From assembly GCA_035702665.1 (NCBI GenBank), contig DASSQD010000035.1, forward strand, positions 17,719-81,718: a stretch of DNA of 64,000 nucleotides, written 5' to 3'. A program made the position numbers and the translations under genes. Numbering within the stretch: position 1 is the stretch's first letter; the number at the start of each line of letters is the position of its first letter. This DNA comes from Burkholderiales bacterium. Its GTDB lineage: Bacteria > Pseudomonadota > Gammaproteobacteria > Burkholderiales > SG8-39. The notes beneath the pieces were generated by a model. That model was not told the DNA's origin. It did not search any database and saw only the letters and a program-made list of their open reading frames with translations. Below, piece after piece: positions 448 to 18,484 of the stretch.

Positions 448-567
448 CCCGGATTTGAGACGGGATGTTAGGTTCGCCGACGGTGTCAACGGGAACGCAC
501 AAATGGTTTCCGCACATCCAATAACAATTTTTCAGCACGCGACGACAATAAATAGGAGGGAACGAGC

Positions 568-2238: not shown

Positions 2239-2248
2239 TTCGTTCCGT

Positions 2249-2275
2249 CGCCCACCGCTTTCCAGACGGTGGGCG
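2249..2275 (+). terminator. GC-rich hairpin directly after the MFS stop codon (possible terminator or RNA-stabilising element; no U-tract)
   Basis: CGCCCACCG (2249-2257), 9-nt loop, CGGTGGGCG (2267-2275): a perfect 9-bp stem 11 nt after the stop codon. It is not followed by a T-run, so function is uncertain. Confidence 0.35.
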
Positions 2276-2283
2276 GCCGGAAC

Positions 2284-2297
2284 TTGACTCGTGTCAA
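2284..2297. promoter_or_regulatory. Crp/Fnr-family box TTGAC-TCGT-GTCAA upstream of the formate dehydrogenase operon
   Basis: Perfect palindrome, extended to CTTGAC...GTCAAG. The -10-like TAAAAT at 2321-2326 starts 30.5 bp from the box centre, which is class II activator geometry. Confidence 0.65.
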
Positions 2298-2332
2298 GCT
2301 TTTGCGCGTGCGCTCGGACGTAAAATGAGCGC

Positions 2333-4027
2333 ATGAACGACCGCGGTTCCGTAACGACCCAAGCGAAGGGAAAGCGCGCGCGCGTGCGCGGCACGCCCAA
2401 GGGGCGCCAGGTCGACCCGAAGGCGCGCGACGAAGTCCGGGCGCTGCTGAACGACGATCCGCGCCGGCGCGACCTGCTGATCGAATACCTGCACCGTGTC
2501 CAGGATCGCTATGGACATCTCTCGGCCGCGCACCTGGTCGCGCTCGCGGCGGAGATGAAGCTCGCGATGACCGAGGTCTACGAGGTCGCGACTTTCTACC
2601 ACCATTTCGACGTCGTAAGGGAAGATGAAGCCGCCCCCGCGGCGATCACCGTGCGCGTCTGCGATTCGATCTCGTGCGAAATGGCGGGGGCGAACGAGCT
2701 GCTCGCGAAGCTTCCGGGAATCCTCGGCAGGGACGTGCGCGTGCTGCACGCACCCTGCATCGGGCGCTGCGAGACCGCCCCTGCCGCGGTCGTCGGGCAG
2801 AATCCGGTTCCGCACGCGAGCGCCGAGAAGGTCGCTGCGCTCGTGAAGGCCAAGGCGGTGAAGCATCCGCCGCAGCCCTACATCGACTACGCTGCCTATC
2901 GCGCGAAAGGCGGCTACGCCCTCGCCAAGTCGTGCGTCGGCGGCGCGCGCAAGCGCGAGGACGTCATCGCCGTGATGGAGAATTCGGGCCTGCGCGGCCT
3001 GGGGGGCGCGGGCTTTCCCGCGGGAAGGAAATGGAGGTCGGTCGCGGCGGAGCCGGCGCCACGCCTGTGCGCGATCAACATCGACGAGGGCGAGCCCGGC
3101 ACCTTCAAGGACCGCTGGTACCTGGAGCGCGACCCGCACCGCTTCATCGAGGGCGCGCTGATCGCGGCCTGGGCCGTCGGCATCGACGAGATCTACATCT
3201 ACTTGCGCGACGAATACCACGGCTGCCGCGCCATTCTCGAGCACGAGCTCGCGGCGCTCAAGGCCGATCCGCCGTGCAAGCTGCCGCCGATTCACCTGCG
3301 CCGCGGAGCGGGCGCGTACATCTGCGGCGAGGAATCGGCGATGATCGAGTCGATCGAGGGCAAGCGAGGCATGCCGCGCCTGCGGCCGCCTTACGTCGCG
3401 CAGGTGGGCCTTTTCAATCGGCCCACCCTGGAGCACAACATGGAAACGCTGCACTGGGTGCGCGAGATCCTGGAGCGGGGCGCCGACTGGTTCGCCTCGC
3501 ACGGCCGCAACGGCCGCAAGGGCCTGCGCTCGTTCTCGGTGAGCGGGCGCGTGAAGAAGCCCGGCGTGCACCTCGCGCCCGCCGGCATCACGGTGAAGGA
3601 GCTGATCGCCGAGTATTGCGGCGGGATGCTGGACGGCCACACGTTCTACGGCTACCTGCCCGGCGGCGCCTCGGGCGGAATCCTGCCCGCGTCGATGGCC
3701 GACATCCCGCTCGATTTCGACACGCTCAACCAGTATGGCTGCTTCATCGGCTCGGCCGCGGTGGTGATCCTCTCCGACAAGGACCGCGCGACGGCCGCCG
3801 CGCGCAACCTGACCAAGTTCTTCTCCGAGGAGTCGTGCGGCCAGTGCACGCCCTGCCGGGTCGGCACCGCCAAGACGCTGAAGCTGATCGCGGAAAGGAA
3901 GTGGGACCAGCCGCTGCTCAAGGAACTTTCCGCGGCGATGATGGACGCATCCATATGCGGGCTGGGGCAAGCGGCGCCCAACCCCGTGCTTTCCGTGATG
4001 AAGTATTTTCCGAACGAGATAACGTGA
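2333..4027 (+). CDS. fdsB: NAD-dependent formate dehydrogenase beta subunit (fused NuoE-like 2Fe-2S plus NuoF-like FMN/NAD/4Fe-4S diaphorase)
   Basis: 564 aa. The N-terminal third is NuoE/thioredoxin-like (RVCDSISCEMAG...APCIGRCETAP). The rest is NuoF-like (GLRGLGGAGFPAGRKW, EGEPGTFKDR, ESCGQCTPCR). Sits immediately upstream of the Mo/W-pterin alpha subunit. Confidence 0.85.
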   Translation: MNDRGSVTTQAKGKRARVRGTPKGRQVDPKARDEVRALLNDDPRRRDLLIEYLHRVQDRYGHLSAAHLVALAAEMKLAMTEVYEVATFYHHFDVVREDEAAPAAITVRVCDSISCEMAGANELLAKLPGILGRDVRVLHAPCIGRCETAPAAVVGQNPVPHASAEKVAALVKAKAVKHPPQPYIDYAAYRAKGGYALAKSCVGGARKREDVIAVMENSGLRGLGGAGFPAGRKWRSVAAEPAPRLCAINIDEGEPGTFKDRWYLERDPHRFIEGALIAAWAVGIDEIYIYLRDEYHGCRAILEHELAALKADPPCKLPPIHLRRGAGAYICGEESAMIESIEGKRGMPRLRPPYVAQVGLFNRPTLEHNMETLHWVREILERGADWFASHGRNGRKGLRSFSVSGRVKKPGVHLAPAGITVKELIAEYCGGMLDGHTFYGYLPGGASGGILPASMADIPLDFDTLNQYGCFIGSAAVVILSDKDRATAAARNLTKFFSEESCGQCTPCRVGTAKTLKLIAERKWDQPLLKELSAAMMDASICGLGQAAPNPVLSVMKYFPNEIT

Positions 4028-4043
4028 TGGCTGGAGGTAGCCG

Positions 4044-6851
4044 ATGGACCGCATAAGCACCGCGCAAGCGGCGACGATGCCCGTCGAGTTCAAGTTGAAC
4101 GGCAAGAGCGTCGTCGGCAGATCGGATGAGACCCTCATCGAGACCGCGAAACACTACGGTATCGACATCCCGCACATCTGCTACAAGGAAGGCATGCGGC
4201 CGGACGGAAACTGCCGCGCCTGCGTGGTCGAGATCAAGGGGGAGCGCGTGCTCGCGCCTTCCTGCTGCCGCACCCCCAAGGACGGCATGGAGGTCACGAC
4301 CGACAGCGCGCGCGCGGTCGCGAGCCAGAAGATGGTGCTAGAGCTGCTGCTTTCGGATATCCCGGAAAAATCCTACACCCTAGACTCCGAACTCGACCAC
4401 TGGGCGAAGCATCTGAAGCTCGGCAAGCCGAGGTTCGAAGGGCGTCACCAGCCGAAGTCCGATCTGTCGCACGCGGCCATCGCGGTGAACCTGGACGCCT
4501 GCATCCAGTGCACGCGCTGCCTGCGCGCCTGCCGCGAGGAGCAGGTCAACGACGTCATCGGCTACGCGTTCCGGGGCGAGCACTCCAAGATCGTCTTCGA
4601 CCTCGACGATCCCATGGGCGACTCGACCTGCGTCGCCTGCGGCGAGTGCGTGCAGGCCTGCCCGACGGGCGCGCTCATGCCGGCGCGCGAGGTGGGCAAG
4701 ATCCAGGCCGACAAGACGGTGGATTCGGTATGCCCGTATTGCGGCGTGGGCTGCCTCCTCACCTACAACGTCAAGGGCAACAAGATCATCTGGGTGCAAG
4801 GCCGTGGCGGCCCGGCGAACTCGAACCGGCTGTGCGTGAAGGGACGCTACGGCTTCGACTACGTACAGCACAAGCACCGCCTCAGGAAGCCCCTCATCCG
4901 CAAGCCGGGCGTTCCGAAGCACAAGGACTTCACGGTCGATCCTGACAACTGGTCCCAGGTGTTCCGCGAGGCGAGCTGGGAAGAGGCGCTCGACTTCGCC
5001 GCCAAGGGCCTGCGCGACATCCGCGATCAATTCGGAAAAAAAGCGCTCGCCGGTTTCGGCTCGGCGAAGGGCACGAACGAAGAGGCCTATCTCTTCCAGA
5101 AGCTGGTGCGCACCGGCTTCGGCTCGAACAACGTCGACCACTGCACGCGCCTCTGTCACGCCTCGTCGGTCGCCGCACTCATGGAGGGCATCAACTCGGG
5201 CGCGGTGTCGAACCAGGTGCGCGACGTGATGAAGGCCGAAGTGATATTCCTGATCGGCGCCAACCCCACGGTGAACCATCCTGTCGCCGCGACCTGGATG
5301 AAGAACGCGGCGAAGGCCGGCGTGAAGCTGATCGTCGCCGACCCCCGCAAAGGCGAGCTCGCGCGCCACGCGACCTACAACCTGCAGTTCAAGGCGGACA
5401 CCGACGTCGCTTTGTTGAACGCGATGCTGCATACGATCGTCGAGGAAGGGCTCGTCAACGAGGCCTTCATCCGCGATCGCACCTCGGGCTACGAAGCGCT
5501 TGCCGAGAACGTGAAGAAGTTCTCGCCCGAGGCGATGGCCCCGGTCTGCGGCATCGACGCGAAGACCATCCGCGAGGTCGCGCGTCTCTACGCCACGTCC
5601 AAGGGCTCGATGATCATGTGGGGCATGGGCATCTCGCAGCACGTGCACGGCACCGACAACGCGAGGTGCCTGATCGCGCTGGCTCTTTCGACCGGCCAGA
5701 TCGGCAAGCCGGGTTCGGGGCTGCACCCGCTTCGCGGCCAGAACAACGTGCAGGGCGCCTCCGACTCCGGCCTCATCCCGATGTTCTACCCGGACTATCA
5801 GCGCGTCGCCACGCCCGAGGCCAAGGCGCGCTTCGAGAAGCTCTGGGGGATGGAGCTCGACCCCAAACCGGGCCTCACCGTGGTCGAGACTATCCATGCC
5901 GCGAAGAAGCGCGAGATCCGCGGCATGTACATCATGGGCGAGAACCCGGCGATGTCCGACCCCGACGTCGACCACGCGCGCGAGGCGCTCGCCACGCTCG
6001 ATCACATGGTGGTGCAGGACATCTTCCTCACCGAGACGGCCTACCTCGCCGACGTGGTGCTGCCGGCGACCGCCTGGCCGGAAAAGGTTGGCACGGTGAC
6101 CAACACCGACCGCATGGTGCAGCTGGGCAGGAAGGCGATCGAACCGCCCGGCGAGGCGAAAGAGGACCTCTGGCTCATCAACGAGCTCGCCAAGCGCATC
6201 GGACTACCCTGGAGCTACACGCATCCGCGCGACGTGTTCAACGAGATGCGCCAGTGCATGGACTCGATCGCCGGCATCACCTGGGAGCGCCTCGAGCGCG
6301 ACTCCTCGGTCACCTATCCCTGCGAGAAGGAGGGCGATCCGGGCGAGCCGGTCGTGTTCACCACGCATTTCCCGACGACCACCGGCCGCGGCAAGTTCGT
6401 GCCCGCCGACCTCATTTCTGCCGACGAGCGCCCCGACACCGACTATCCGATGGTGCTCATCACGGGGCGGCAGCTCGAGCACTGGCACACCGGCGCGATC
6501 ACGCGGCGCGCCACGGTGCTCGACCACATCGAGCCCGAGCCGGTCGCCTCGCTTCACCCGCTCGATCTGGACCGCTTCGGCGTGAAGCCGGGAGAGATCG
6601 TCACCGTCGAGTCCCGCCGGGGAAAGATCGCGCTCTACGCGCGCGCCGACGAAGGCACCCCGGTCGGCGCCCTGTTCATCCCGTTCTGCTATTACGAGGC
6701 CGCGGCGAACATGCTCACCAACCCCAAGCTCGACCCGTTCGGCAAGATTCCGGAGTTCAAGTACTGCGCCGTGAGGGTGACGAAGGGCGGCCCAGAGCCG
6801 GTGCACTCGAGCTTCGGCGGCGGCAAGGCGCTGGCGGAACTCCAACGTTGA
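4044..6851 (+). CDS. fdsA: Formate dehydrogenase alpha subunit (molybdo/tungstopterin, N-terminal 2Fe-2S and 4Fe-4S domains; Cys-type, not Sec)
   Basis: 935 aa. NuoG-like N-terminus (CYKEGMRPDGNCRACVVE, CIQCTRCLRAC, CVACGECVQACP), then an MopB domain with VDHCTRLCHASSV (active-site Cys; no in-frame TGA). GGAGG RBS 6 nt upstream of the ATG. Confidence 0.9.
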   Translation: MDRISTAQAATMPVEFKLNGKSVVGRSDETLIETAKHYGIDIPHICYKEGMRPDGNCRACVVEIKGERVLAPSCCRTPKDGMEVTTDSARAVASQKMVLELLLSDIPEKSYTLDSELDHWAKHLKLGKPRFEGRHQPKSDLSHAAIAVNLDACIQCTRCLRACREEQVNDVIGYAFRGEHSKIVFDLDDPMGDSTCVACGECVQACPTGALMPAREVGKIQADKTVDSVCPYCGVGCLLTYNVKGNKIIWVQGRGGPANSNRLCVKGRYGFDYVQHKHRLRKPLIRKPGVPKHKDFTVDPDNWSQVFREASWEEALDFAAKGLRDIRDQFGKKALAGFGSAKGTNEEAYLFQKLVRTGFGSNNVDHCTRLCHASSVAALMEGINSGAVSNQVRDVMKAEVIFLIGANPTVNHPVAATWMKNAAKAGVKLIVADPRKGELARHATYNLQFKADTDVALLNAMLHTIVEEGLVNEAFIRDRTSGYEALAENVKKFSPEAMAPVCGIDAKTIREVARLYATSKGSMIMWGMGISQHVHGTDNARCLIALALSTGQIGKPGSGLHPLRGQNNVQGASDSGLIPMFYPDYQRVATPEAKARFEKLWGMELDPKPGLTVVETIHAAKKREIRGMYIMGENPAMSDPDVDHAREALATLDHMVVQDIFLTETAYLADVVLPATAWPEKVGTVTNTDRMVQLGRKAIEPPGEAKEDLWLINELAKRIGLPWSYTHPRDVFNEMRQCMDSIAGITWERLERDSSVTYPCEKEGDPGEPVVFTTHFPTTTGRGKFVPADLISADERPDTDYPMVLITGRQLEHWHTGAITRRATVLDHIEPEPVASLHPLDLDRFGVKPGEIVTVESRRGKIALYARADEGTPVGALFIPFCYYEAAANMLTNPKLDPFGKIPEFKYCAVRVTKGGPEPVHSSFGGGKALAELQR

Positions 6852-6943
6852 TCTGATTCGCCGCTCGCTCCCCGGAACGTTGCGGTAGACTCCCGTCGTC
6901 GGCCCGGCGCATCCGCCAGGCCGCGCCGTCTGGGAGGACAAGC

Positions 6944-8011
6944 ATGAAAACCGTCGGAATCATCGCTGCGATCGCGCTTGCCGGCGCGATGTCTCTTTCG
7001 CTCGCCGCGCGCGCGGCGGGTACGGACGCTCTGTGGGAGGTCACCACGCAGATGAACGTGCCCGGGATGCCCCCTGGGATGGGCGGAAACACGTCGCAGC
7101 AGTGCTTCGAGAAGGACATGCGCAAGAACGTCACCAAGGGCAAGAACGCGCAGGAGTGCACCGTGACGGACTACAAGGAAGCCGGGAACAAGCTGACCAT
7201 CACGATGAGCTGCAAGAACAACCGTTCGGCGGTCATGGAGTACGTGTTCAACTCGGGCCGCACGGAGTACAAGGGCACGATGCGCATGAAGGACGGCGGC
7301 CGGGACATGGTCATGAACACGAGCGGCAGGAAGATCGGCACCTGTGACGCGCAGCAGGCGAGGAGCGAGCGCGAAGGGCAGGTCGCGGCGATGAAGGCTC
7401 AAGCCAACAGCGCCCAAGCGCAGGCCGATCAAGCGAAGAAGCAGGCGACGGATTCGCAGATCGCGGAGTGCAGCAAGGCGGTCGACGCCATGGACATGGG
7501 AAAGCTGGGCATGTACGGCCGCTGCTACAAGAAGAGCGACGACACCTGCAACAGCATGATGAACAGCTACGGCAAGATGTACCCCGAGGTGCAATCGGCG
7601 TGCACCGCCAAGGCCGCCGAATTCTGCAAGCGCTACCAGACGCAGGACGGCTTCGCGAAGGCCGGGGGCGACCCGAAAGCAGCGGAAATGTGCGGCCTGT
7701 CCGCGGACAAGGTTAAGGCGTCGTTGTGCCCCGGCGCCGCGAAGACCGAGTCGCTCGACTTCCTCGGCCGCTACTGCCCGAACGAAGCCAAGCCGCTCGC
7801 GAAGAAGTACTGCACCGGACGCGACTATACCTCGCGGGAAGGCGGGAAATACGCGGCGCTGTGCTCGAGCTACGCCCTGGAATCCGCCGAGGCGCCGCAG
7901 CGCCCCGCGGGCAGCGGGCAAGCGCCCGGGCAGAAATCGCCCGCGAGCGGCGCGGTCCAGCAGGGCGTCGACAAGGGGATCAACAAGCTGAAGGGCCTGT
8001 TCGGAAGGTAG
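6944..8011 (+). CDS. Secreted DUF3617-like protein with a long coiled-coil/Cys-rich C-terminal extension
   Basis: Signal peptide MKTVGIIAAIALAGAMSLSLAARAAG. LWEVTTQMNVPGMP...QQCFEKD...ECTVTDYKEAGNKLTITMSC...YKGTMRM resembles DUF3617. Roughly 200 further residues are rich in Q/A/K and Cys. Confidence 0.55.
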   Translation: MKTVGIIAAIALAGAMSLSLAARAAGTDALWEVTTQMNVPGMPPGMGGNTSQQCFEKDMRKNVTKGKNAQECTVTDYKEAGNKLTITMSCKNNRSAVMEYVFNSGRTEYKGTMRMKDGGRDMVMNTSGRKIGTCDAQQARSEREGQVAAMKAQANSAQAQADQAKKQATDSQIAECSKAVDAMDMGKLGMYGRCYKKSDDTCNSMMNSYGKMYPEVQSACTAKAAEFCKRYQTQDGFAKAGGDPKAAEMCGLSADKVKASLCPGAAKTESLDFLGRYCPNEAKPLAKKYCTGRDYTSREGGKYAALCSSYALESAEAPQRPAGSGQAPGQKSPASGAVQQGVDKGINKLKGLFGR

Positions 8012-8012
8012 C

Positions 8013-8804
8013 GTGCTTCGTCGCCTCGCGCTCCTCGCTCTTTTCGCAGCGGGCTGCGCGCACGCGCAACAGGACCGCTATCCGCGGGTCGCAGACGCCT
8101 ATCTGGTCAAGCGCGACGGGATGCTGCTGTGGGCGGGGAGGGCTGGCGACAGGCTGCCGCCCGCGAGCCTCGCCAAAATGATGACCGCGCTACTCGTACT
8201 CGAGAACGGCGACCTGGATCGCGTGATCGTGCTGGACCGAGGCGTGGCGCTTGAGACAGGACGGCGTCTCGGTCTCAGCCCAGGGGAAAAGTGGCGCGTC
8301 CGCGACCTGTTCACGGCGATGGTAGTCCGGTCGGCGAACGACGCCTGCCGGGCGCTCGCCGACGACGCGGGTCCGAGCGCGCCGAAGTTCGTCGACCGGA
8401 TGAACCGCCGCGCGGCGGCGCTCGGGCTCCGGGATACGCACTTCGCCGACCCCTGCGGACACGACCGCGAGCAGCAGTACTCCAGCGCGCAGGATCTCGC
8501 CCGGCTCGCCGAGGAAGTGATCCGGTATCCGGATTACCTGCGCCTGGCGGGGAGGAGGCAGGCGGCGATTCGCAGCGCAGATGGGACGCGCTCGTTCGCG
8601 TTCGACAACACGAATGCGCTGATCGGGCGCTATCCCGGCGCGATCGGGGTGAAGACCGGATACACCGAGCTCGCAGGGACCTGTCTGGTCGCGCTCGCGG
8701 AGCGTGACGGCGTGCGCGTGCTGGTGGTGATGCTCAACGCGCGCAACCGCTGGTGGCAGGCGGTGGGCCTGCTCGACCGCGCGTTCGACGCCCGGCCGCA
8801 ATGA
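8013..8804 (+). CDS. D-alanyl-D-alanine carboxypeptidase (serine peptidase S11, PBP5/6-like)
   Basis: 263 aa. SxxK (SLAKMMT), SxN (RSANDA) and KTG (VKTGYT) motifs in the correct order. N-terminal signal/lipobox-like LFAAGC. GTG start. Confidence 0.8.
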   Translation: MLRRLALLALFAAGCAHAQQDRYPRVADAYLVKRDGMLLWAGRAGDRLPPASLAKMMTALLVLENGDLDRVIVLDRGVALETGRRLGLSPGEKWRVRDLFTAMVVRSANDACRALADDAGPSAPKFVDRMNRRAAALGLRDTHFADPCGHDREQQYSSAQDLARLAEEVIRYPDYLRLAGRRQAAIRSADGTRSFAFDNTNALIGRYPGAIGVKTGYTELAGTCLVALAERDGVRVLVVMLNARNRWWQAVGLLDRAFDARPQ

Positions 8805-10141
8805 GGCGCGGGTGGTTGCCGGCGCTCGTCGCTGTTGCCGCCTACCTGCCATCTCTTGCCGGTGTGTTCCAGTTCGACGACTACAACGTCATCGTCAACG
8901 CCCCGAGCGTGCATTCCTGGCACGCGCTTCTCGGGAACCTCGGGATACGGCCGCTGCTGAAGGCAAGCTACACGCTGAACTGGACGCTGGGCCCGGGAGA
9001 GTTTGGCTTTCACCTGCTCAATATCGCGGCGCACGCGATCAATTCCGCGCTGCTCTACGCGGTCGGGTCGACGCTGTGCGCGCGCTGGTTCGACGAAGGC
9101 GGATCGGACCGGTCCCGCGGAGTGGCGCTGGCCGCGGCGCTGCTCTTCGCGCTGCATCCGGCGCAGACGGAAGCGGTGACGTACATCAGCGGGCGCTCGT
9201 CTTCGCTGATGGCGAGTTTCTATCTCGCAGCGCTGCTCGCGTATCTTCGCGGCGGGCACCGCGCGGTGTCGACGCTGCTGTTCTTGCTCGCCCTGGCCAC
9301 GCGCGAGACCGCGGCGACTCTTCCTGCGGCGCTGCTCTTGTGCGAGGCCTGCGGACGGGACCTGCGGCGCTGGAGGACATTCTTGATCGAGGTGGCGCGC
9401 CGGCAGTGGACGCACTGGGCTGCGCTCGCCGGGGCCGCGATCGTCGCGATGCTGCATCCACGCTATGTCGAACTGCTGAGCTTCGGCTTCACGCAGCGGG
9501 ACGCGTGGAGCAACCTCCTCACCCAGGTGAGCGGCGTCTCGTATCTCGTCTGGCGGCTGGTCGCGCTGCGGGGATACAACATCGACCCCGCGCTGACGCC
9601 GGTCGTCGAATGGGATGCGGTGCTGGTGGCGCAGGCGGCGCTGCTCGCCGCTCTGCTGGCGCTCGGCGTCGCCAGCGTTCGCTCGCGCCCTTGGATCGGA
9701 TTCGGCGTGCTGTGGTTCTTCCTGCAGCTCGCGCCGACGAACTCGATCGTGCCGCGCCTGGATGCCGTCAACGACCGCCAGCTGTACCTCGCCGGCTGGG
9801 GGCTGTTCCTCGCCCTCGTCGCTCAGGTCTCGTGCCTGCGTCTGCCGCCCGTGCCGGCGCGCGCGGGGCTCGCAATATTGTTCGGCTTATGCGCGCTGTC
9901 TTGCATTGCGCGGCAGCTTGACTACGTGAGTGAAATCGCTCTGTGGGAGGCGAGCGTGCGCGAGGCTCCGTGGAATCCTCGCGCGCACAACAATCTGGGA
10001 TACGCATACCATCTGGCCGGCCGAATCGACGACGCGGATCGCGAGTATCGCTCCGCGCTCATTCTGCGGCCCGGCTACGCGAAGGCACGCTTCAATCTCG
10101 AGGCGGCCGAGCGGGACCGCGAGCTCGCGCCACCGCAGTGA
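8801..10141 (+). CDS. TMTC-like polytopic membrane protein (GT-C/PMT-like N-terminal domain plus C-terminal TPR repeats), paralog 1
   Basis: The ATG at 8801 overlaps the dacA-like stop (ATGA). MRRGWLPALVAVAAYLPSLAGVFQFDDYNVIVNAP has the acidic FDD motif after TM1. Multiple TM segments. C-terminal TPR (AHNNLGYAYHLAGRIDDADREYRSALILRPGYAKARFNL). Confidence 0.6.
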   Translation: MRRGWLPALVAVAAYLPSLAGVFQFDDYNVIVNAPSVHSWHALLGNLGIRPLLKASYTLNWTLGPGEFGFHLLNIAAHAINSALLYAVGSTLCARWFDEGGSDRSRGVALAAALLFALHPAQTEAVTYISGRSSSLMASFYLAALLAYLRGGHRAVSTLLFLLALATRETAATLPAALLLCEACGRDLRRWRTFLIEVARRQWTHWAALAGAAIVAMLHPRYVELLSFGFTQRDAWSNLLTQVSGVSYLVWRLVALRGYNIDPALTPVVEWDAVLVAQAALLAALLALGVASVRSRPWIGFGVLWFFLQLAPTNSIVPRLDAVNDRQLYLAGWGLFLALVAQVSCLRLPPVPARAGLAILFGLCALSCIARQLDYVSEIALWEASVREAPWNPRAHNNLGYAYHLAGRIDDADREYRSALILRPGYAKARFNLEAAERDRELAPPQ

Positions 10142-10166
10142 CCGCGCGCAACGCGGGGCAACCGTC

Positions 10167-10180
10167 TTGACTTCCGTCAA
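10167..10180. promoter_or_regulatory. Crp/Fnr-family box TTGAC-TTCC-GTCAA upstream of fhs
   Basis: Perfect palindrome. TATAGT at 10204-10209 starts 30.5 bp from the box centre. fhs ATG at 10256. Confidence 0.65.
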
Positions 10181-10255
10181 TGTCGCGGGAAATGTTCACA
10201 CCGTATAGTGCTCGTCCGAAGCGAAAGATCCCTCGGAATCCCCAAGGAGCTGCAG

Positions 10256-11926
10256 ATGCCGTCCGATATCGAAATCGCACAGAAAGCCAAGCTCGAGCGC
10301 ATATCCAAGATCGCGCTGTCGAAGCTCGGCATCCCCGAGGAGCATCTCGAGCCCTACGGTCACTACAAGGCGAAAGTCTCGCTCAAGTATCTCGACAGCC
10401 TGAAGGCACGGCCCAACGCGAAGCTGGTCCTGGTGACCGCGATCAGCCCGACGCCCGCGGGCGAGGGCAAGACCACCACCACGGTGGGCCTGGGCGACGC
10501 GCTCAACCACATCGGCAAGAAGGCGATGATCTGCCTGCGCGAACCCTCGCTCGGACCGGTGTTCGGAATGAAGGGCGGCGCCGCCGGCGGCGGCTACGCG
10601 CAGGTCGTCCCGATGGAGGACATCAACCTGCATTTCACGGGCGACTTCAACGCCATCGCGCTCGCCAACAATCTGCTCGCTGCGATGATCGACAACCACA
10701 TCCATCACGGCAACGAGCTCGGGATCGACGTGCGCCGCATCACCTGGAAGCGCGTCGTCGACATGAACGACCGCGCGCTGCGCGACATCACCGTCAGCCT
10801 GGGCGGCCCGGGCAACGGCTACCCGCGCCAGGACGGGTTCGACATCGTCGTCGCCTCGGAGGTCATGGCGATCTTCTGCCTGTCGACCTCGCTCGACGAT
10901 CTGAAGGAGCGCCTGGGCAAGATCGTCGTCGGCTACACGCGCGAACAGAAGCCGGTCCTCGCCCGCGACCTGCAGGCGCACGGCGCGATGACGGTGCTGC
11001 TGAAGGACGCGATCCAGCCCAATCTGGTGCAGACGCTCGAGAACAATCCGGCGTTCATCCACGGCGGGCCCTTCGCCAACATCGCGCACGGGTGCAACTC
11101 GGTGATCGCGACGAAATCGGCGATGAAGCTCGTCGACTACGTGGTCACCGAGGCGGGTTTCGGCGCCGACCTAGGCGCAGAGAAATTCATCGACATCAAG
11201 TGCCGGAAGTCGGGGCTGCGCCCTTCGGCCGCGGTGATCGTGGCGACCGTGCGCGCGATGAAGTACCACGGCGGCGCGGATCTCAAGACCATCACCCAGG
11301 AGAACCTGGAAGCGCTGGAGAAGGGCATCACCAATCTCGAGCGCCACGTCGAGAACGTGCAAAAGAACTACGGCATTCCCTGCGTGGTCTCGATCAACCG
11401 CTTCACGCACGACACGCCGGCGGAGCTCGACCTGCTCAAGTCGCGCATCGCGAAGCTCGGCGCCAAGGTGGTGCTCGCGACGCACTGGGGTGACGGCGGC
11501 AAGGGCGCGGCGGAGCTGGCGCGCATCGTCGTCGACCTGTGCGAGCAGAAGAACGACTTCCAGTTCGTGTACGACGACAAGGACGCGCTCTGGGACAAGA
11601 TCAACAAGATCGCGAAGAAAATCTACCGCGCGAGCGAGGTCACCGCGGATGCCAAGGTGCGCGGCCAGATCAAGAAGCTGCAGGAGGACGGCTACGGGAA
11701 CTACCCGGTGTGCGTCGCGAAGACGCAGTACTCGTTCTCGACCGACCCGCAGTTGCGCGCGGCGCCCTCGAACCATGTGGTGAACATACGGGAGGTGCGC
11801 CTTGCCGCGGGCGCCGAGTTCATCGTGATGGTCTGCGGCGACATCATGACGATGCCGGGATTGCCCAAGGTCCCCTCGTCGGTCAAGATCGACCTGGTCG
11901 ACGGCAAGGTGGTCGGGCTGTTCTGA
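10256..11926 (+). CDS. fhs: Formate--tetrahydrofolate ligase
   Basis: [16 protein letters not shown]..., [16 protein letters not shown]-loop, about 556 aa, conserved throughout. AAGGAG RBS at 10244-10249. The track ORF start at 10208 is an upstream extension. Confidence 0.95.
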
Positions 11927-11975
11927 CCGGGCGCAGCGCGGGCAGGCCGGCTGGCGCGGGAGGAGCGTTCGCTGG

Positions 11976-12674
11976 ATGGAAGAGTTTCTGACGGCGCAGT
12001 TCTGGCTGGGACTCGGGACGATCGTCTGGGTCAACGTCATCCTTTCCGGCGACAACGCGGTCGTTATCGCGCTCGCCGCCCGGTCCCTTCCGGAGCCCCA
12101 GCGCAGACAGGCGGTGCTGTGGGGCGCCGGTGCGGCCGTGGTGCTGCGGATCGTCCTCACCGTCGTCGCCGTCAAGCTGCTCGAGCTGCCGTATCTCAAG
12201 CTGATCGGCGCCGTGCTGCTCCTCTGGATCGCCGTGCAGCTGCTGGTTCCCGAGGACGAGAGCGGCGAGGACGACGCGCACTCCAGCGCCCATCTGCTGG
12301 GGGCGATCAAGACCATCCTGATCGCGGATCTGGTCATGAGCGTGGACAACGTTCTCGCCGTGGCCGCGGCCGCGAAGGGGAGCTTTCTGCTGCTCGTCAT
12401 CGGCCTGGCGATCAGCATCCCGCTGGTGGTATTCGGCGCCACCATGCTCATGGGGCTGATGGAGCGATACCCACTGATCGTAACGCTGGGTGCCGCGATT
12501 CTCGGGTGGACCGCCGGGGACATGGGGGTCACCGACCCAGCGCTCGCTCATTGGATCGTGACCAACATGCAATGGATACGCACCTTCGAGGTCGTGCCCT
12601 CGCTCGGCGCCGTGGCGGTGGTCGCCGTCGGCAAGTGGCTCGCCGGGCGCAAGCGGCGAGCGCCGCCGGCCTAG
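11976..12674 (+). CDS. TerC/YjbE-family integral membrane protein
   Basis: 232 aa. GTIVWVNVILSGDNAVVIAL and a second ADLVMSVDNVLAVA repeat are typical of the TerC family. Confidence 0.75.
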   Translation: MEEFLTAQFWLGLGTIVWVNVILSGDNAVVIALAARSLPEPQRRQAVLWGAGAAVVLRIVLTVVAVKLLELPYLKLIGAVLLLWIAVQLLVPEDESGEDDAHSSAHLLGAIKTILIADLVMSVDNVLAVAAAAKGSFLLLVIGLAISIPLVVFGATMLMGLMERYPLIVTLGAAILGWTAGDMGVTDPALAHWIVTNMQWIRTFEVVPSLGAVAVVAVGKWLAGRKRRAPPA

Positions 12675-12698
12675 GGTGGGGCGGACATCGGCTCAGAC

Positions 12699-12712
12699 TT
12701 GATTCCAATCAA
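12699..12712. promoter_or_regulatory. Crp/Fnr-family box TTGAT-TCCA-ATCAA (exact FNR consensus) upstream of tctCBA
   Basis: Perfect palindrome, extended to CTTGAT...ATCAAG. TGgTAATAAT at 12731-12740 supplies a -10 element about 29.5 bp from the box centre. Confidence 0.65.
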
Positions 12713-12866
12713 GAGTGCTTCCGGTATTTCTGGTAATAATGGTCCCGCTGTGCGAGGTCGAGGTCGCCGACGCGGTCCGGCAGGTGCGGGGCCGCGCAAT
12801 ATAAAATGTCACAGGCGAGGCATGGGGCCGACGCGGAAAGGGACGCAAGTTCCAAAGGAGAGAGAG

Positions 12867-13868
12867 ATGCCGTTCGATACCTATCGTGTGAGAGTTCTGT
12901 TGCTGGCTGCGATTGGCGCGGCCGTTCCCGGCGCGACGTTCGCGGCCTGGGAGCCGACGAAAACGGTGGAATTCATCGTGCCCGCCGGAACGGGCGGCGG
13001 CGCCGATCAGATGGCACGCTTCATCCAGGGCATCGTCGCCAAGCATAAGCTGATGAAGCAGCCGATGGTCGTCATCAACAAGGCGGGCGGCGCGGGCGCC
13101 GAAGGCTTCCTCGACGTCAAGGACGCCAAGGGCGACGCGCACAAGCTCATCATCACGCTGTCCAACCTGTTCACCACCCCGCTCGCCACCCACACGCCGT
13201 TCAACTGGCGCGATCTCACGCCGGTGCAGATGATGGCGCTGGACAATTTCGTCCTCTGGGTGAACGCCGAGACCCCGTACAAGACTCCGAAGGAATACGT
13301 CGACGCGGTGAAGGCGGGAGGCGGCAAGTTCAAGATGGGCGGCACCGGATCCAAGCAGGAAGACCAGATCATCACCGTGGCCATCGAGAAGCAGACGGGC
13401 GCGAAGTTCACCTATATCTCGTACCGCGGCGGCGGCGAGGTGGCGGTGCAGCTCGTTGGCAAGCACATCGATTCGACGGTCAACAATCCGATCGAAGCGG
13501 TGGCGCAGTGGCGCGCCGGAACCCTGCGGCCGCTGTGCGTGTTCGACTCGAAGCGCATGCCGTACAAGACCTTGGTCACCAAGACGATGTCCTGGTACGA
13601 CATTCCCACCTGCAAGGAGAAAGGTCTCGACGTCGAGTACCTGATGCTGCGCGGGATCTTCATGGCTGGCGGCGTGACCGCCGATCAGGTCCAGTACTAC
13701 GTCGACCTCATGAAGAAGGTGCGCGAGACGCCCGAGTGGAAGGACTTTCTCGAGCAGGGCGCGTTCAACCAGACCACATTGAACGGCAAAGATTACGAAG
13801 CCTGGGTCGCGCACGAAGAAGCCCGGCACATGCTCCTCATGAAGGAAGCGGGGTTCCTCGCGAAGTAG
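12867..13868 (+). CDS. tctC: Tripartite tricarboxylate transporter substrate-binding protein (TctC/Bug family)
   Basis: MPFDTYRVRVLLLAAIGAAVPGATFA signal peptide, then EPTKTVEFIVPAGTGGGADQMARF, the Bug-family hallmark. AAGGAG RBS. The track start at 12699 is an extension. Confidence 0.85.
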   Translation: MPFDTYRVRVLLLAAIGAAVPGATFAAWEPTKTVEFIVPAGTGGGADQMARFIQGIVAKHKLMKQPMVVINKAGGAGAEGFLDVKDAKGDAHKLIITLSNLFTTPLATHTPFNWRDLTPVQMMALDNFVLWVNAETPYKTPKEYVDAVKAGGGKFKMGGTGSKQEDQIITVAIEKQTGAKFTYISYRGGGEVAVQLVGKHIDSTVNNPIEAVAQWRAGTLRPLCVFDSKRMPYKTLVTKTMSWYDIPTCKEKGLDVEYLMLRGIFMAGGVTADQVQYYVDLMKKVRETPEWKDFLEQGAFNQTTLNGKDYEAWVAHEEARHMLLMKEAGFLAK

Positions 13869-13869
13869 C

Positions 13870-14433
13870 TTGTCGCGCGGGCGTGCTCCGCGCGCACCGG
13901 GCCGGCGGGCAGATCGAGGGGGCGAGGGCGTGGAAAACGGTACGGATCGTTCGGCGGCGTCGGCGCGCGCGGTTGAAATCGGCGTCGCGGCGGTGATCCT
14001 GCTTTTCGGTCTGGTGGTCGCGGTGGACAGCCTTCGGCTGGGCGCGAGATGGGGGGAGGACGGGCCGATGCCTGGATATTTCCCCTTCTACGTCGGCCTG
14101 CTCATCTGCTTCTCCAGCGCGATGGTTCTCGTGCGGGGAATACGAAACCGCGCGCTCGCCCGGGAATCCTTTGTGTCGCGCGGCGAGCTGGGGAAGATCC
14201 TGGTGGTCCTGGTGCCCTCGATCGTCTACGTCGGAATCATCGCTTACCTGGGCTTCTATGTGGCCTCGGTGCTGTTCATCGCGTACTTCATGCGGCGGCT
14301 GGGCAAGTATTCGTGGCTCATGGTCGTGCCCGTTTCGGTCGGCGTGATCGTGGCCTTCTTCCTCACATTCGAAATCTGGTTCGCGGTTCCCCTGCCCAAG
14401 GGGCCCCTTGAAGCCGCGCTTGGCCTAGGCTGA
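13870..14433 (+). CDS. tctB: Tripartite tricarboxylate transporter TctB small membrane subunit (start uncertain; GTG at 13930 is an alternative)
   Basis: Four TM segments. GPMPGYFPFYVGLL motif. Located between tctC and tctA. Confidence 0.7.
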   Translation: MSRGRAPRAPGRRADRGGEGVENGTDRSAASARAVEIGVAAVILLFGLVVAVDSLRLGARWGEDGPMPGYFPFYVGLLICFSSAMVLVRGIRNRALARESFVSRGELGKILVVLVPSIVYVGIIAYLGFYVASVLFIAYFMRRLGKYSWLMVVPVSVGVIVAFFLTFEIWFAVPLPKGPLEAALGLG

Positions 14434-14470
14434 GATCCGGCGAGGCGCGCAGCGGGCAAGGAGGAGCCTG

Positions 14471-15988
14471 GTGGAAGAAATCAACGCGTTGCTGCAGGGC
14501 TTCGGGGTCGCGCTGTCGCCCTTCAACCTGCTGCTGATGTTCGTGGGCGTCGTTCTCGGCATCATCATCGGAGTGCTGCCCGGCCTGGGCGGGGCCAATG
14601 GCGTCGCCATCCTGCTGCCGCTCACGTTCTCCATGTCGCAGCAGCCTGGCGGGACCACTTCCGCGATCATCCTTCTTTCCTGCATCTACTGGGGCGCGCT
14701 TTTCGGCGGGGCGATCACTTCCATCCTGTTCAACATCCCCGGCGAGCCGTGGTCGGTCGCGACGACGTTCGATGGCTATCCGCTCGCGCAGAAAGGGCGC
14801 GCGGGCAGCGCGCTGACCGCGGCGTTCACATCGTCCTTCTTCGGCGCCTTCATCGCCGTGGTCATGATCACGTTCCTGTCGCCGGTCGTCGCGAAGTTCG
14901 CGCTCGAGTTCGGGCCGCCGGAGTTTTTTTCGGTCTATCTGCTCACCTTCTGCGCCTTCGTGGGAATGAGCAGCGGCAACGCGTTCAAGACGATTTCCTC
15001 GATGATGATCGGTTTCGCTCTCGCCGCCGTGGGCCTGGACAGCGTCACCGGGACGCTGCGACTGACGTTCGGATTCACCGTGCTGCTGAAGGGGTTCGAT
15101 TTCCTGATCGCCGTCATCGGGTTGTTCGGCATCGGCGAGATCCTGGAGACGCTCGAGGAAGGACTCGCCTTCAAGGGAGCCCAGGCCAAGATCAACGCCA
15201 AGGTGGTGCTGGAGACCTGGAAGGAGCTGCCGCGCTATTGGGCGACGTCGCTCCGCGCCGCCGCCGTGGGCTGCTTCATGGGGATCGTTCCGGGCGGCGC
15301 GACGCCGGCGTCCTTCATGAGTTACGGCCTGGCGCAGCGCCTGTCGAAGAACGGCTCGAGCTTCGGCACCGGAATCGTCGAGGGCGTGGTGGCGCCGGAA
15401 ACGGCGGCCCATGCCGCGGGAACCTCCGCGCTCTTGCCGATGATCACCCTGGGGGTTCCGGGGTCGCCCACCGCGGCGGTGCTGCTCGGAGGCCTGCTGA
15501 TCTGGGGGCTGCAGCCCGGGCCGCTGCTCTTCGTCGAGAAGCCTGATTTCGTGTGGGGCCTGATCGCCAGCATGTACCTGGGGAATATCGCGGGACTGAT
15601 CGTAGTGCTTACCTGCGTGCCCCTGTTCGCCGCGATCCTGAGGATTCCGTTCTCGATCATCGCGCCGGTGATCATCGTGATCTGCGCGATCGGCGCGTAC
15701 ACCGTGCACAACTCGATGTTCGACGTCTATCTGATGCTGATCTTCGGCGTGATCGGCTACGCGTTCAAGAAGCTCGGCTATCCCCTCGCGCCGATGGTGC
15801 TGGCCTTGGTCCTGGGCGATCGGGCGGAGGAGAACTTCCGCAACGCGATCAAGGGATCCCAGGGGGATCTGACGGTGTTCTTCTCCAATCCCCTCGTGGG
15901 AGGGCTGACGGGCCTCGCGCTCTGCCTGCTCTTCTGGCCGCTGCTCAGGGCGCTCTGGGGCGCGGTGTTGGGCAGACGCGCGGTCTAG
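14471..15988 (+). CDS. tctA: Tripartite tricarboxylate transporter TctA large permease
   Basis: 505 aa polytopic protein. VLPGLGGANGVAILLPLTF and GIVPGGATPASF are typical of TctA. AGGAGG RBS before the GTG start. Confidence 0.9.
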   Translation: MEEINALLQGFGVALSPFNLLLMFVGVVLGIIIGVLPGLGGANGVAILLPLTFSMSQQPGGTTSAIILLSCIYWGALFGGAITSILFNIPGEPWSVATTFDGYPLAQKGRAGSALTAAFTSSFFGAFIAVVMITFLSPVVAKFALEFGPPEFFSVYLLTFCAFVGMSSGNAFKTISSMMIGFALAAVGLDSVTGTLRLTFGFTVLLKGFDFLIAVIGLFGIGEILETLEEGLAFKGAQAKINAKVVLETWKELPRYWATSLRAAAVGCFMGIVPGGATPASFMSYGLAQRLSKNGSSFGTGIVEGVVAPETAAHAAGTSALLPMITLGVPGSPTAAVLLGGLLIWGLQPGPLLFVEKPDFVWGLIASMYLGNIAGLIVVLTCVPLFAAILRIPFSIIAPVIIVICAIGAYTVHNSMFDVYLMLIFGVIGYAFKKLGYPLAPMVLALVLGDRAEENFRNAIKGSQGDLTVFFSNPLVGGLTGLALCLLFWPLLRALWGAVLGRRAV

Positions 15989-16650
15989 GCGACGCGCTGC
16001 TTGAGCCGCGAGAGGGTCTCGGGCGTGAGGTTGAGGTAGGACGCCAGTTCTTTCTTGGGGATGCGCCCGATCAGGTCGGTGTGCTTGCGCATGAAGCGCG
16101 CGAGCCGGCCCGGAGCGTCGAGCAGGTGCAGAGTAATCGTGTGCGCCATGACCTCGGACATGAGGCGCATGACCTCGTGCTCGAAGCGGAGCTTCACTTC
16201 GGCGTGGCGCTCGAGGAACTCGACCCAATGAGGCATCGACAAGCGCGCGACCCGCACCTTGGTGACCGCGGCGATGCTGTACGGCATCGGGGTCTTCATG
16301 CGCCACGCCGCGTAGGAGGTGTCCATGTCGGTTTCGGCCGCGAAGCGCAGGATCATCTCCTTGCCCTGAGGATTGCTCACGACGCGCTTGAGTATCCCGT
16401 CCAGGATGAAGAACTGCTCCATGTTCGTGCCGCCCTGCCTGACCAGTGGCTCGCCCTTGCGGTACTCGGCGACCTCCAGCTGGGGCTCGAGGTCGTCCCA
16501 GGCGGCACCCGGCATTTCGCGCAGGATCAGGTTCTGCTTGAGCTGCAGCCGGATGGTATTGCGCTGCGGGTGATTGACGATCCCCGACACGGATAGCGGG
16601 TGCACGAACGGTGAGCCGGCAATTAAGCGGGATTTATTGACTACAGTCAA
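15985..16650 (-). CDS. Crp/Fnr-family transcriptional regulator (cNMP-binding-like effector domain plus C-terminal HTH). Start uncertain: TTG at 16650 or GTG at 16605.
   Basis: The beta-roll region contains EYRKGEPLVRQGG...FFILDGILKRVV. The C-terminal HTH is ELASYLNLTPETLSRLKQ, with the FNR-type E-x-x-S-R recognition motif. There is no N-terminal Cys cluster. Convergent with tctA and divergent from oxc. Confidence 0.8.
   Translation of the reverse strand: MTVVNKSRLIAGSPFVHPLSVSGIVNHPQRNTIRLQLKQNLILREMPGAAWDDLEPQLEVAEYRKGEPLVRQGGTNMEQFFILDGILKRVVSNPQGKEMILRFAAETDMDTSYAAWRMKTPMPYSIAAVTKVRVARLSMPHWVEFLERHAEVKLRFEHEVMRLMSEVMAHTITLHLLDAPGRLARFMRKHTDLIGRIPKKELASYLNLTPETLSRLKQRVA
16637..16650. promoter_or_regulatory. 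Crp/Fnr-family box TTGAC-TACA-GTCAA in the crp-like/oxc divergent region
   Basis: Perfect palindrome. TAGACT at 16673-16678 starts 29.5 bp from the box centre on the oxc side. The box overlaps the annotated TTG start of the regulator ORF, which favours the downstream GTG start and autoregulation. Confidence 0.65.
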
Positions 16651-16732
16651 GGTTGAGGTCGCAGTACGACCTTAGACTTTTCAAGTTTTGGGAGACCGCA
16701 GCGTGCGGTCCGGCCAACGCAAGGAGACCACC

Positions 16733-18481
16733 ATGGGAACAGTCGAGCCGCAAGTCGCGTCCGGTCCCGACGCGCAAGCACAGCAGGTGACCGACGGCTT
16801 CAACCTGGTCATCGATGCCCTGAAGCTCAACGGCATCGACACGATCTACGGGCTGCCCGGCATTCCGATCACCGACCTCACCCGCCGCGCGCAGGCAGCG
16901 GGCCTGCGCGTGCTTTCCTTCCGTCACGAGCAGAACGCCGGCTATGCCGCGTCGATCGCAGGTTTCCTGACGCAGAAGCCCGGCATCTGCCTGACCGTAT
17001 CGGCGCCGGGCTTCCTCAACGGACTCAACGCGCTCGCGCACGCGACCGTCAACTGCTTTCCGATGATCCTGATCAGCGGCTCGAGCGAGCGGGAAATCGT
17101 CGACCTCCAGCAGGGCGACTACGAGGAGATGGATCAGCTCGCGATCGCCAAGCCGGTCGCCAAGGCGGCCTTCCGCGTGCTGCACGCCGAGGATATCGGC
17201 GTCGGCGTCGCGCGCGCCATCCGCGCCGCTGTCTCCGGCCGCCCGGGCGGCGTCTACCTCGACATGCCCGCGAAGCTCTTTGCGGAGAGCATCGACGCCG
17301 CGGCGGGGAAGAATTCGCTGATCAAGGTCGTCGACGCCGCGCCGCGCCAGATACCCGCGCCGGAGGCGGTCAAGCGTGCGCTCGACCTGCTGAAGGGCGC
17401 GAAGAAGCCGCTCATCATCCTCGGCAAGGGCGCGGCGTATGCGCAGGCCGATGCCGACATCAAGTCCCTGGTGGAGAAGTCCGGGATTCCCTACTTGCCG
17501 ATGTCGATGGCCAAGGGGCTGCTGCCCGACACGCACGAGCTATGCGCCTCCGCCGCCCGCTCCTTCGTGCTGCCCGGCGCCGACGTGGTGATGCTGATCG
17601 GCGCGCGCCTCAACTGGCTGCTCTCGCACGGCAAGGGCAAGACCTGGGGCGGCAAGGGGTCCAAGGACTGGGGTGGCCAGAAGTTCATCCAGATCGACAT
17701 CTCGCCTCAGGAAGCGGACAGCAACGTGCGCATCGACGCGCCACTGGTCGGCGATATTGGGTCCTGCGTATCCGCGCTGCTTGCGGGCGTCGGATCGCTG
17801 CCCAGGCCGCCGGCCGAGTGGCTGAACGCGGTACATGAGAAGAAGACGACCAACGTCGCCAAGATGGCCGAGACGCTGTCGAAGAATCCCTCGCCGATGA
17901 ATTTCCACAGCGCGCTGAACGTGGTGCGCGATGTCGTCAAGGCCAACCCGGACGCGATGCTCGTCAACGAGGGCGCGAATGCCCTCGACTTCACGCGCTC
18001 GATCGTCGACATGTACAAGCCGAGAAAGCGCATCGATGTCGGCACCTGGGGCATCATGGGCGTCGGCATGGGCTACTGCGTCGCAGCGGCCGTAGTCACC
18101 CAGCAGCAGGTGATCGCGATCGAGGGCGACAGCGCCTTCGGCTTCTCCGGCATGGAAGTCGAGACGATCTGCCGCTACAACCTGCCGGTGTGCATCGTGA
18201 TCATGAACAACAACGGCGTCTACAAGGGCACCGACGTCGATCCGAACGGCCGCGATCCGGCGCCGACCGTGTTCGTCAAGGGCGCGCGCTACGACAAGCT
18301 GATCGAGGCTTTCGGCGGCGCCGGGGTGAACGCCACGACCCCCGCCGAGCTGAGGAAGGCGATGGAAGACGCGATCCGCTCGAAGAAGCCCACGCTCATC
18401 AACGCCGTCATCGACGAGACCGCGGGCACCGAGAGCGGTCGCATCACAAGCCTGAACCCGAACGCCGGAAAGAAGAAGTAA
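16733..18481 (+). CDS. oxc: Oxalyl-CoA decarboxylase (ThDP-dependent)
   Basis: About 582 aa. [28 protein letters not shown] at the N-terminus, ThDP motif [31 protein letters not shown], adjacent to frc. AAGGAG RBS. Confidence 0.9.
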
Positions 18482-18484
18482 GCC

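Follow-up and report, generated by a model that had tools for sequence, protein, structure and literature searches.

We describe here a set of palindromic boxes and an adjoining gene for a short protein of the Crp/Fnr superfamily (hereafter the regulator), found in a stretch of 64,000 nucleotides (the window) from an uncultured member of the Burkholderiales (assembly GCA_035702665.1, contig DASSQD010000035.1). Four boxes, placed non-randomly, lie upstream of genes for oxalate and formate use. They are conserved in about 80 species at a fixed distance from a -10-like hexamer, and the regulator carries recognisable features of its protein family. From the sequence, we infer that this protein probably binds the boxes and activates the operons that follow them, rather than repressing them. 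Transcription start sites (TSSs), autoregulation and an effector related to oxalate are predicted on the same ground, each with the strength given below.

Palindromic boxes in the window

An exact search of the window for TTGAYNNNNRTCAA palindromes returned four sites, all of them intergenic and each an exact match to the pattern. Their consensus is TTGAY-N4-RTCAA. Scores are those of a position weight matrix (PWM), which was built from other species only, the window being left out of the training.

2284-2297: box 1, TTGACTCGTGTCAA, upstream of the gene for a formate dehydrogenase (FDH) beta/gamma fusion; exact match, PWM score 15.6 bits
10167-10180: box 2, TTGACTTCCGTCAA, upstream of fhs; exact match, PWM score 25.0 bits
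12699-12712: box 3, TTGATTCCAATCAA, upstream of tctCBA; exact match, PWM score 20.8 bits
16637-16650: box 4, TTGACTACAGTCAA, in the divergent regulator/oxc intergenic region; exact match, PWM score 26.1 bits

At a threshold of at least 12 bits, the PWM recognised exactly these four sites in the 64 kb. Shuffles of the window that preserve dinucleotides (n=100) contained 0.12 sites on average, and four sites were found in 0 of the 100. A looser search, for TTGA-N6-TCAA, gave the same four sites and no others, for 0.47 expected. The original prediction had reported four perfect palindromes at these coordinates, each upstream of an operon start, and both statements hold: the sites are far in excess of the 0.12 expected by shuffling, and the placement upstream of oxc, fhs, tctC and FDH is kept in relatives (next section). 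Seven matches with one mismatch were also present in the window. The three best-scoring, at 30278, 49105 and 50098, lie within long coding open reading frames (ORFs) and were rejected as chance occurrences.

Conservation of the boxes across species

Relatives were searched in one genome per GTDB species, and at least 348 genomes encode a relative of the regulator. The counts below refer to the best 80 of these 348 (73-95% identity), all metagenome-assembled genomes (MAGs) of uncultured Burkholderiales/Betaproteobacteria. The loci compared were of about 20 kb each (10-kb flanks), 1.21 Mb in total, with 64 kb for the source genome. Gene order was largely the same across the 80 genomes, and the regulator adjoined a box in every one. 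The 1.21 Mb contained 191 TTGA-N6-TCAA sites, for some 4-9 expected from composition, and 176 of the 191 lay at most 300 bp upstream of one of five target genes.

With the 12-bit PWM threshold, a box was found upstream of the regulator in 79/79 loci, upstream of oxc in 69 of 70, of fhs in 51 of 58 and of tctC in 50 of 62. It was also found upstream of frc in 5 loci, where frc adjoins the regulator and oxc has no match. At the same threshold, no locus had a box upstream of fdhA, terC, tctB, tctA, the fmt-like gene or the kinase gene. Position 5 of the half-site, which was left free in the search, was always a pyrimidine in the 344 half-sites, with 282 C and 62 T, which corresponds to an 82% preference for TTGAC. 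Both half-sites were kept as a palindrome in about 250 promoters.

The 10-kb flanks seldom reached fdhB, and soil metagenomes were hence scanned with FDH-beta as query. A box preceded fdhB in 36/36 metagenome loci at 82% FDH-beta identity or more, and nearly all loci below 82% were without one. FDH, which had been predicted to belong to the regulon, would be a member in close relatives, and this part of the prediction does not extend to more distant FDH loci. The best box scores at the oxc loci of cultured Cupriavidus and Paraburkholderia were 5.3 and 1.3 bits, i.e. no box, and no neighbouring Crp/Fnr gene was seen at the loci examined in these two genera.

The site is kept at orthologous genes, is found at none of the internal genes and co-occurs with the regulator, which is how a regulon appears in comparative genomics. 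This conservation upstream of the regulator, oxc, fhs, tctC and, in close relatives, fdhB supports the reading of the four boxes as a Crp/Fnr-type regulon. The targets form a hierarchy: oxc-frc and the regulator itself are the most conserved, followed by fhs(-terC), the transporter, and FDH, the latter in closer relatives only.

Promoter geometry

A -10-like hexamer follows each box in the direction of its target gene, and box 4 is in addition followed by one in the direction of the regulator:

2321-2326, forward strand: -10-like hexamer TAAAAT, first base 30.5 bp from the box 1 centre
10204-10209, forward strand: -10 hexamer TATAGT, first base 30.5 bp from the box 2 centre
12735-12740, forward strand: -10-like hexamer AATAAT (alternatively TAATAA at 12734), first base 29.5 bp from the box 3 centre
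16673-16678, forward strand: -10-like hexamer TAGACT of the oxc-frc promoter, first base 29.5 bp from the box 4 centre
16621-16626, reverse strand: candidate -10 of the regulator, TTAATT, 17.5 bp from the centre of box 4

Inspection of the sequence confirmed the first four hexamers at the positions originally named, 29.5-30.5 bp from the box centres. Ungapped alignments of the promoters from the relatives were then anchored on the box, in the orientation of the target gene, and the best -10-like hexamer was scored. Essentially all of the 71 oxc promoters had it at 29.5 or 30.5 bp. For fhs, the consensus CcTAtagT was at 30.5 bp in 46 promoters out of 51, and at 29.5 bp in the other 5. For tctC, 39 of the 50 promoters had their best hexamer at 29.5/30.5 bp. 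The distance between box and -10 is constant to +/-1 bp over more than 150 promoters of different species. As judged from the position of the -10, the box centre would lie at -41.5/-42.5 from the TSS. Starts are predicted near 2333, 10216, 12747 and 16685, and for the regulator at about 16614 on the reverse strand.

A consensus scan detected no complete sigma-70 -35/-10 promoter in positions 1-20000, and its terminator-like matches were at chance level. By inspection, none of the four -10 elements is preceded at 17 bp by a hexamer resembling TTGACA. In a background of 64% G+C, a spacing fixed to +/-1 bp is most likely a requirement of an activator that contacts the polymerase, and an operator would not need it. 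The -10 distance kept across species thus supports the class II geometry that had been proposed for these promoters.

The fdhB promoters may have a further property. In the window and in about 27 related loci, 40.5-43.5 bp separate the box centre from the ATG, and in these the -10 (GTAAAAT or GTAGAAT) ends a variable 5-7 nt before the ATG (6 nt in the window, ATG at 2333). The FDH-beta protein alignment starts at residue 1, and in loci L081-L117 the space upstream of fdhB is too short for a Shine-Dalgarno sequence. As the -10 ends 5-7 nt before a conserved ATG, the +1 is predicted to fall on the A of the start codon, and the FDH beta/gamma mRNA, made from a class II promoter, would be leaderless. 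In 8 loci the arrangement is different, the box being some 87 bp upstream of fdhB.

Toward the regulator, 62 of 80 loci had a T.aa.t element at 16.5-17.5 bp from the box centre. The -35 of the regulator promoter would here be the TTGACT half-site of the box, from which autorepression is predicted.

The regulator protein

The regulator gene had been placed at 15985-16650. This turned out to be a mechanical ORF only, whose TTG "start" is a half-site of box 4. Homologues start at the equivalent of GTG 16587 or GTG 16605, the former being likelier, and the box is therefore upstream of the regulator gene rather than inside it. A survey of ORFs over the 64 kb found no other Crp/Fnr-like gene, in agreement with what had been claimed.

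Translation and alignments confirmed the presence of the PETLSRL recognition helix (E-x-x-S-R), which does not vary among close homologues and is mostly retained by distant short relatives. PETLSR aligns with R180-E181-T-V-G184-R185 of CRP, giving an FNR-like E-x-x-S-R pattern. In a profile search of the PDB, the E and F helices of the regulator fall on their CRP counterparts. The best match in that search was 3dn7, with E=1.8e-11 over 166 residues, and CRP and DNR were matched with values of about 1e-6 to 1e-5. The Pfam domain PF00027 (cNMP_binding) was recognised over residues 47-134, with 39.1 bits for a cut-off of 27.5. The protein ends 6 amino acids (aa) after the recognition helix, and this truncation is kept in all homologues. 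It falls in the short Crp-like subfamily exemplified by 3dn7 (about 190-210 aa), and its relatives at 25-48% identity share the C-terminal end. Its translation contains zero Cys, and the family alignment shows no conserved one. With no Cys and no cyclic AMP (cAMP)-binding residues, its signal would be neither O2 via an iron-sulphur (Fe-S) cluster nor cAMP.

NCBIfam scores of the regulator were far below every FNR/CRP cut-off. A search of 1.84 billion cluster representatives gave 53 with E<1e-30, mostly fragments. Few full-length relatives were found, at 36-48% identity, followed by short Crp-like proteins with 25-33% identity and a common PE(T/S)LSR ending. No relative with 50% identity or more was found outside the uncultured Burkholderiales clade, and a tblastn search of plasmids and chromids of cultured bacteria gave no relative above 31% identity. 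By these comparisons, the regulator is a distinct, narrow branch of the short Crp/Fnr subfamily, and is not an orthologue of FNR or CRP, nor probably of FixK. Of its description as an FNR-type regulator, the E-x-x-S-R helix and the TTGAY boxes are retained, but it has no Cys cluster, it is of the short form and it remains below the NCBIfam cut-offs.

Proposed activation by the local protein and its alternatives

We propose that a dimer of the regulator would bind the c-TTGAY-N4-RTCAA-g boxes with its E-x-x-S-R helices. The boxes would be centred some 41.5-42.5 bp upstream of the TSSs of four promoters that have a -10 and no -35, and the bound dimer would recruit RNA polymerase, i.e. act by class II activation. 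In the module so switched on, uptake would be ensured by TctCBA, activation and decarboxylation by the frc and oxc products, oxidation of formate by the NAD-linked FDH, and capture of formate into the folate pool by the fhs product. Box 4 overlaps the -35 region of the divergent regulator promoter, and the protein would in this way probably limit its own synthesis.

The hierarchy of targets points to oxalate, or to an intermediate of the pathway, as effector. We put at nearly even the chances that the effector is oxalate-related, be it oxalate, a CoA-thioester of the pathway or formate. A narrower proposal is that this short, Cys-free protein directly senses oxalate or oxalyl-/formyl-CoA, and serves as master activator of oxalotrophy in a lineage of soil Burkholderiales that is widespread and uncultured. 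This we hold tentatively, at a little under even chances.

Several observations weigh against activation by the local protein. Some concern the protein: the helix-turn-helix (HTH) domain PF13545 (HTH_Crp_2) scored 20.3 bits for a cut-off of 27, with only positions 2-42 of the 70 in the profile aligned, and two elements that flank the HTH in CRP, the beta-hairpin ahead of it and the strands behind it, are missing from the regulator and from its homologues alike. An AlphaFold2 model, computed from a 14-sequence alignment, was unusable (predicted local distance difference test, pLDDT, 46; predicted template modelling score, pTM, 0.28), and the putative competence of the regulator for DNA binding is read from the alignment alone. 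Others concern the boxes, which are missing from 7 of 58 fhs promoters and 12 of 62 tctC promoters. Of the three fdhB genes that were reached within regulator-genome loci, one had a box (in L011) and two had none (in L024 and L055). Finally, no box was found in region 1-567, upstream of a gene for a transporter of the major facilitator superfamily (MFS), of OFA type.

The same protein could also act as a repressor, occluding the -35 region until released by oxalate or formate, so that the operons would be turned on by de-repression. We consider this unlikely. It would fit the fact that a site near -41.5 overlaps the binding place of sigma region 4, which also counts against activation, as well as the very probable repression by the same box of the regulator's own promoter, and the absence from the protein of parts of the canonical CRP C-terminal domain. 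However, promoters with no recognisable -35 should be weak without an activator, and the +/-1 bp constancy of the box-to--10 distance is what the helical-face constraint of an activator touching RNA polymerase would produce.

Quite improbable, in our opinion, is an explanation in which the boxes are FNR/FixK/Dnr-type sites of a global Crp/Fnr regulator, responsive to O2 or nitric oxide (NO) and encoded elsewhere, and the genes form an anaerobic or micro-oxic regulon. The local small protein would then not be the main binder, or would merely compete, which is just as improbable. The motif is indeed indistinguishable from the FNR/FixK2/Dnr class, TTGA(T/C)-N4-(A/G)TCAA, and a paralogue with the same helix elsewhere in the genome could bind the boxes; both points speak against a role of the local protein. 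Burkholderiales commonly carry several Crp/Fnr paralogues, and the data cover 64 kb here and loci of about 20 kb elsewhere. Against a global regulator, the small regulator adjoins the box in 79/79 loci and the box overlaps its own promoter, a classic signature of autoregulation. The box is also gone from FDH promoters outside the clade, and from the oxc loci of cultured Burkholderiaceae, where the regulator is absent. The half-sites are mainly TTGAC (82%) and not the TTGAT of FNR, and the targets make up a substrate-specific pathway and not a respiratory set.

That the palindromes are due to chance, or are plain -35 hexamers (TTGACx) with no dedicated regulator, is hardly credible: TTGAC is the beginning (first five bases) of the sigma-70 -35 consensus, and toward the regulator gene one half-site may double as -35, but the shuffles (0/100 with four sites), the palindrome kept in about 250 promoters, and the 30 bp from TTGAC half-site to -10 toward the targets, incompatible with a 17 +/- 1 bp spacer, effectively refute it.

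Genes of the locus

The genes around the boxes, and the models that recognise them, are the following:

568-2238: OFA-type MFS transporter (NCBIfam, below cut-offs)
2333-4027, forward strand: FDH beta/gamma, a NuoE+NuoF-like fusion (NCBIfam NuoF/NuoE; Pfam Complex1_51K, 2Fe-2S_thioredx)
4044-6851, forward strand: alpha subunit of NAD-linked FDH, with molybdenum bis-pyranopterin guanine dinucleotide (Mo-bisPGD) (NCBIfam TIGR01591, 760.8 bits, cut-off 666)
10256-11926, forward strand: fhs, formate-tetrahydrofolate ligase (NF010030, 915 bits, cut-off 652)
11976-12674, forward strand: gene for a TerC/YjbE-family membrane protein (TIGR03717, 233 bits, cut-off 135)
12867-13868, forward strand: tctC (Pfam TctC)
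13870-14433, forward strand: tctB (Pfam TctB)
14471-15988, forward strand: tctA (Pfam TctA)
15985-16605, reverse strand: short Crp/Fnr-superfamily regulator, about 200-206 aa (Pfam cNMP_binding)
16733-18481, forward strand: oxc, oxalyl-CoA decarboxylase (equivalog, 982 bits, cut-off 557)
18485-19756, forward strand: frc, formyl-CoA transferase (578 bits, cut-off 442)
19759-20691, forward strand: Fmt-like formyltransferase gene (157.9 bits, below the Fmt equivalog cut-off of 201.5)
20938-24345: Ser/Thr protein kinase with a CHASE2 domain, then a PP2C phosphatase (Pfam)

The gene identities first assigned are correct, as oxc, frc, fhs and FDH alpha pass the NCBIfam equivalog cut-offs and TctA, TctB and TctC are recognised by Pfam. 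The Fmt-like protein (310 aa) has N- and C-terminal formyl-transferase domains, and its gene lies directly 3' of frc in more than 50 genomes. It looks like a paralogue within the oxc-frc operon, possibly moving formyl groups between the CoA and folate pools. By eye, a 7-bp hairpin, GACCGCA-GCG-TGCGGTC, was noticed at 16694-16710, in the predicted 5' leader of oxc. Downstream of the oxc operon, the position of the kinase and phosphatase genes is kept in most related genomes, and no box precedes them.

The fhs-terC order is kept in about 55 loci, in which the terC-family gene always follows fhs. The name of the NCBIfam model for this gene (11976-12674) begins with "R_switched". An Rfam scan of positions 1-24000 (E<=0.1) returned nothing, yybP-ykoY included, and thus no riboswitch ahead of terC or within the long leader of tctC. 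Between fdhA and fhs, region 6944-10141 encodes a DUF3617 protein, a D-Ala-D-Ala carboxypeptidase-like protein and a membrane protein with tetratricopeptide repeats (TPR). The same three-gene insert was seen only in L001 and L002, the two closest genomes reaching this region, and fhs directly follows fdhA in most relatives.

In the OFA-family MFS transporter, an "MFS small subunit" tail (NF047966) is fused to the protein. Upstream of this MFS gene lies a divergent HTH gene, LysR/ModE-like and cut off by the start of the window, which probably exerts separate control over the MFS gene. Between the MFS stop codon and box 1, at 2250-2276, a GC-rich hairpin, GCCCACCG...CGGTGGGC, was noticed by eye, with no T-tract after it.

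Exchange of the transporter and further candidate members

Relatives that have no tctCBA carry OxlT equivalogs in the same slot (TIGR04259, 378-655 bits, cut-off 335). The replacement regions are:

L011, 10633-13151: OxlT replacement region, with a PanE/ApbA-family reductase gene
L073, 3643-6965: OxlT replacement region
L056, 13801-15102: OxlT replacement region
L070, 10634-11848: OxlT replacement region

Both OxlT genes of L073 carry their own boxes. In L011 and L056, oxlT follows fhs-terC, downstream of a box. It also follows fhs-terC in L070, where no box was found. Because OxlT replaces the transporter under the same operator, TctCBA is a candidate oxalate importer. No oxalate transporter of the tripartite tricarboxylate transporter (TTT) type was encountered in the literature searched.

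In L011, a box also precedes a gene for a PanE/ApbA-family reductase. The oxalyl-CoA reductase of Methylobacterium extorquens is a member of this family, and the L011 protein is a candidate oxalyl-CoA reductase. A sucCD-like pair (succinate- or malate-CoA ligase) lies directly upstream of fdhB in 8 metagenome loci (L085, L096, L097, L102, L109, L112, L113 and L114, at about 1300-3900), and a box is present 62.5-66.5 bp upstream of sucC in 8/8 of these. There is no sucCD-like pair in the 64-kb window.

Significance

Oxalate turnover drives the soil oxalate-carbonate pathway. For this uncultured Burkholderiales group, the locus offers a first clear candidate switch for oxalate use: the regulator comes with a precise motif and with defined promoters, in a lineage that is abundant and uncultured. 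The motif can be used to discover further oxalate/formate genes in MAGs, the regulator is a candidate oxalate biosensor, and a new substrate, oxalate, is predicted for a transporter of the TTT family.

If the protein is an oxalate-sensing master activator, then its regulon would include a tripartite oxalate importer, TctCBA, interchangeable with OxlT, and a leaderless FDH mRNA whose start codon is the +1 of a class II promoter. The Fmt-like formyltransferase, the PanE-type reductase and the SucCD-like ligases would outline how oxalate carbon is routed.

A 2024 review describes the regulation of oxalotrophy genes as little studied (PMC13409138), and no link of Crp/Fnr proteins to oxc/frc was found in the literature searched. 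What is new here is the regulator branch and its regulon; class II activation by Crp/Fnr proteins is a known, textbook mechanism. The advance is in biology and annotation, and not in principle.

Comparison with known systems

Elsewhere, oxc and frc are controlled by other means: EvgAS governs yfdXWUVE in E. coli, and control is pH-dependent in lactobacilli and bifidobacteria. The soluble FDH of Cupriavidus is under the LysR-type regulator FdsR. These systems have the same enzymes as the locus described here (Oxc, Frc, NAD-linked FDH), but their regulators belong to other families and no motif is shared.

With CRP, the regulator shares the superfamily, E and R at positions 181/185, and the precedent of class II activation. 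It differs from it in that the equivalents of the cAMP contacts G71/E72 and R82/S83 are replaced, R180 is changed to Pro and G184 to Ser, and the box is TTGAY and not TGTGA. Accordingly, neither the cAMP-binding residues nor the TGTGA-N6-TCACA site of the CRP subgroup was found, and the CRP model NF008732 gave 27.7 bits on the regulator for a cut-off of 266.

PDB entry 3dn7, a 194-aa structural-genomics protein deposited as "cyclic nucleotide binding regulatory protein", is built in the same short way as the regulator and aligns with it end to end. Both 3dn7 and short Crp-like proteins of Bacteroidota and others end, like the regulator, just after a PE-x-LS-x-(I/L)R helix. Identity with 3dn7 is only about 25-33%, however, and the name given by its depositor carries no function, DNA site or regulon.

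E. coli FNR and the regulator have in common the E-x-x-S-R helix, the TTGAx-N4-xTCAA inverted repeat, sites about 41.5 bp upstream of the inferred starts of promoters lacking a -35, and an N-terminal cNMP-like barrel with a C-terminal HTH (a partial Pfam match in the present case). Unlike FNR, the regulator has no Cys and hence no [4Fe-4S] oxygen sensor, it is shorter by about 45 residues, and neither the beta-hairpin ahead of the HTH nor the strands behind it are present. Here TTGAC predominates among the half-sites, and the targets form a substrate pathway and do not serve anaerobic respiration.

FixK2 of rhizobia is a Crp/Fnr protein without an Fe-S cluster, which binds TTGA(T/C)-N4-(A/G)TCAA and activates class II promoters. 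It is full-length and effector-less, is controlled by the FixLJ cascade and by cysteine oxidation, and acts on micro-oxic and symbiotic genes. The present regulator is, in contrast, short and distant (18.7 bits with the FtrB model, cut-off 211), and its targets are oxalate/formate genes. It nevertheless shares with FixK2 the absence of a cluster, the same class of box, TTGAC half-sites included, and the predicted activation from about -41.5.

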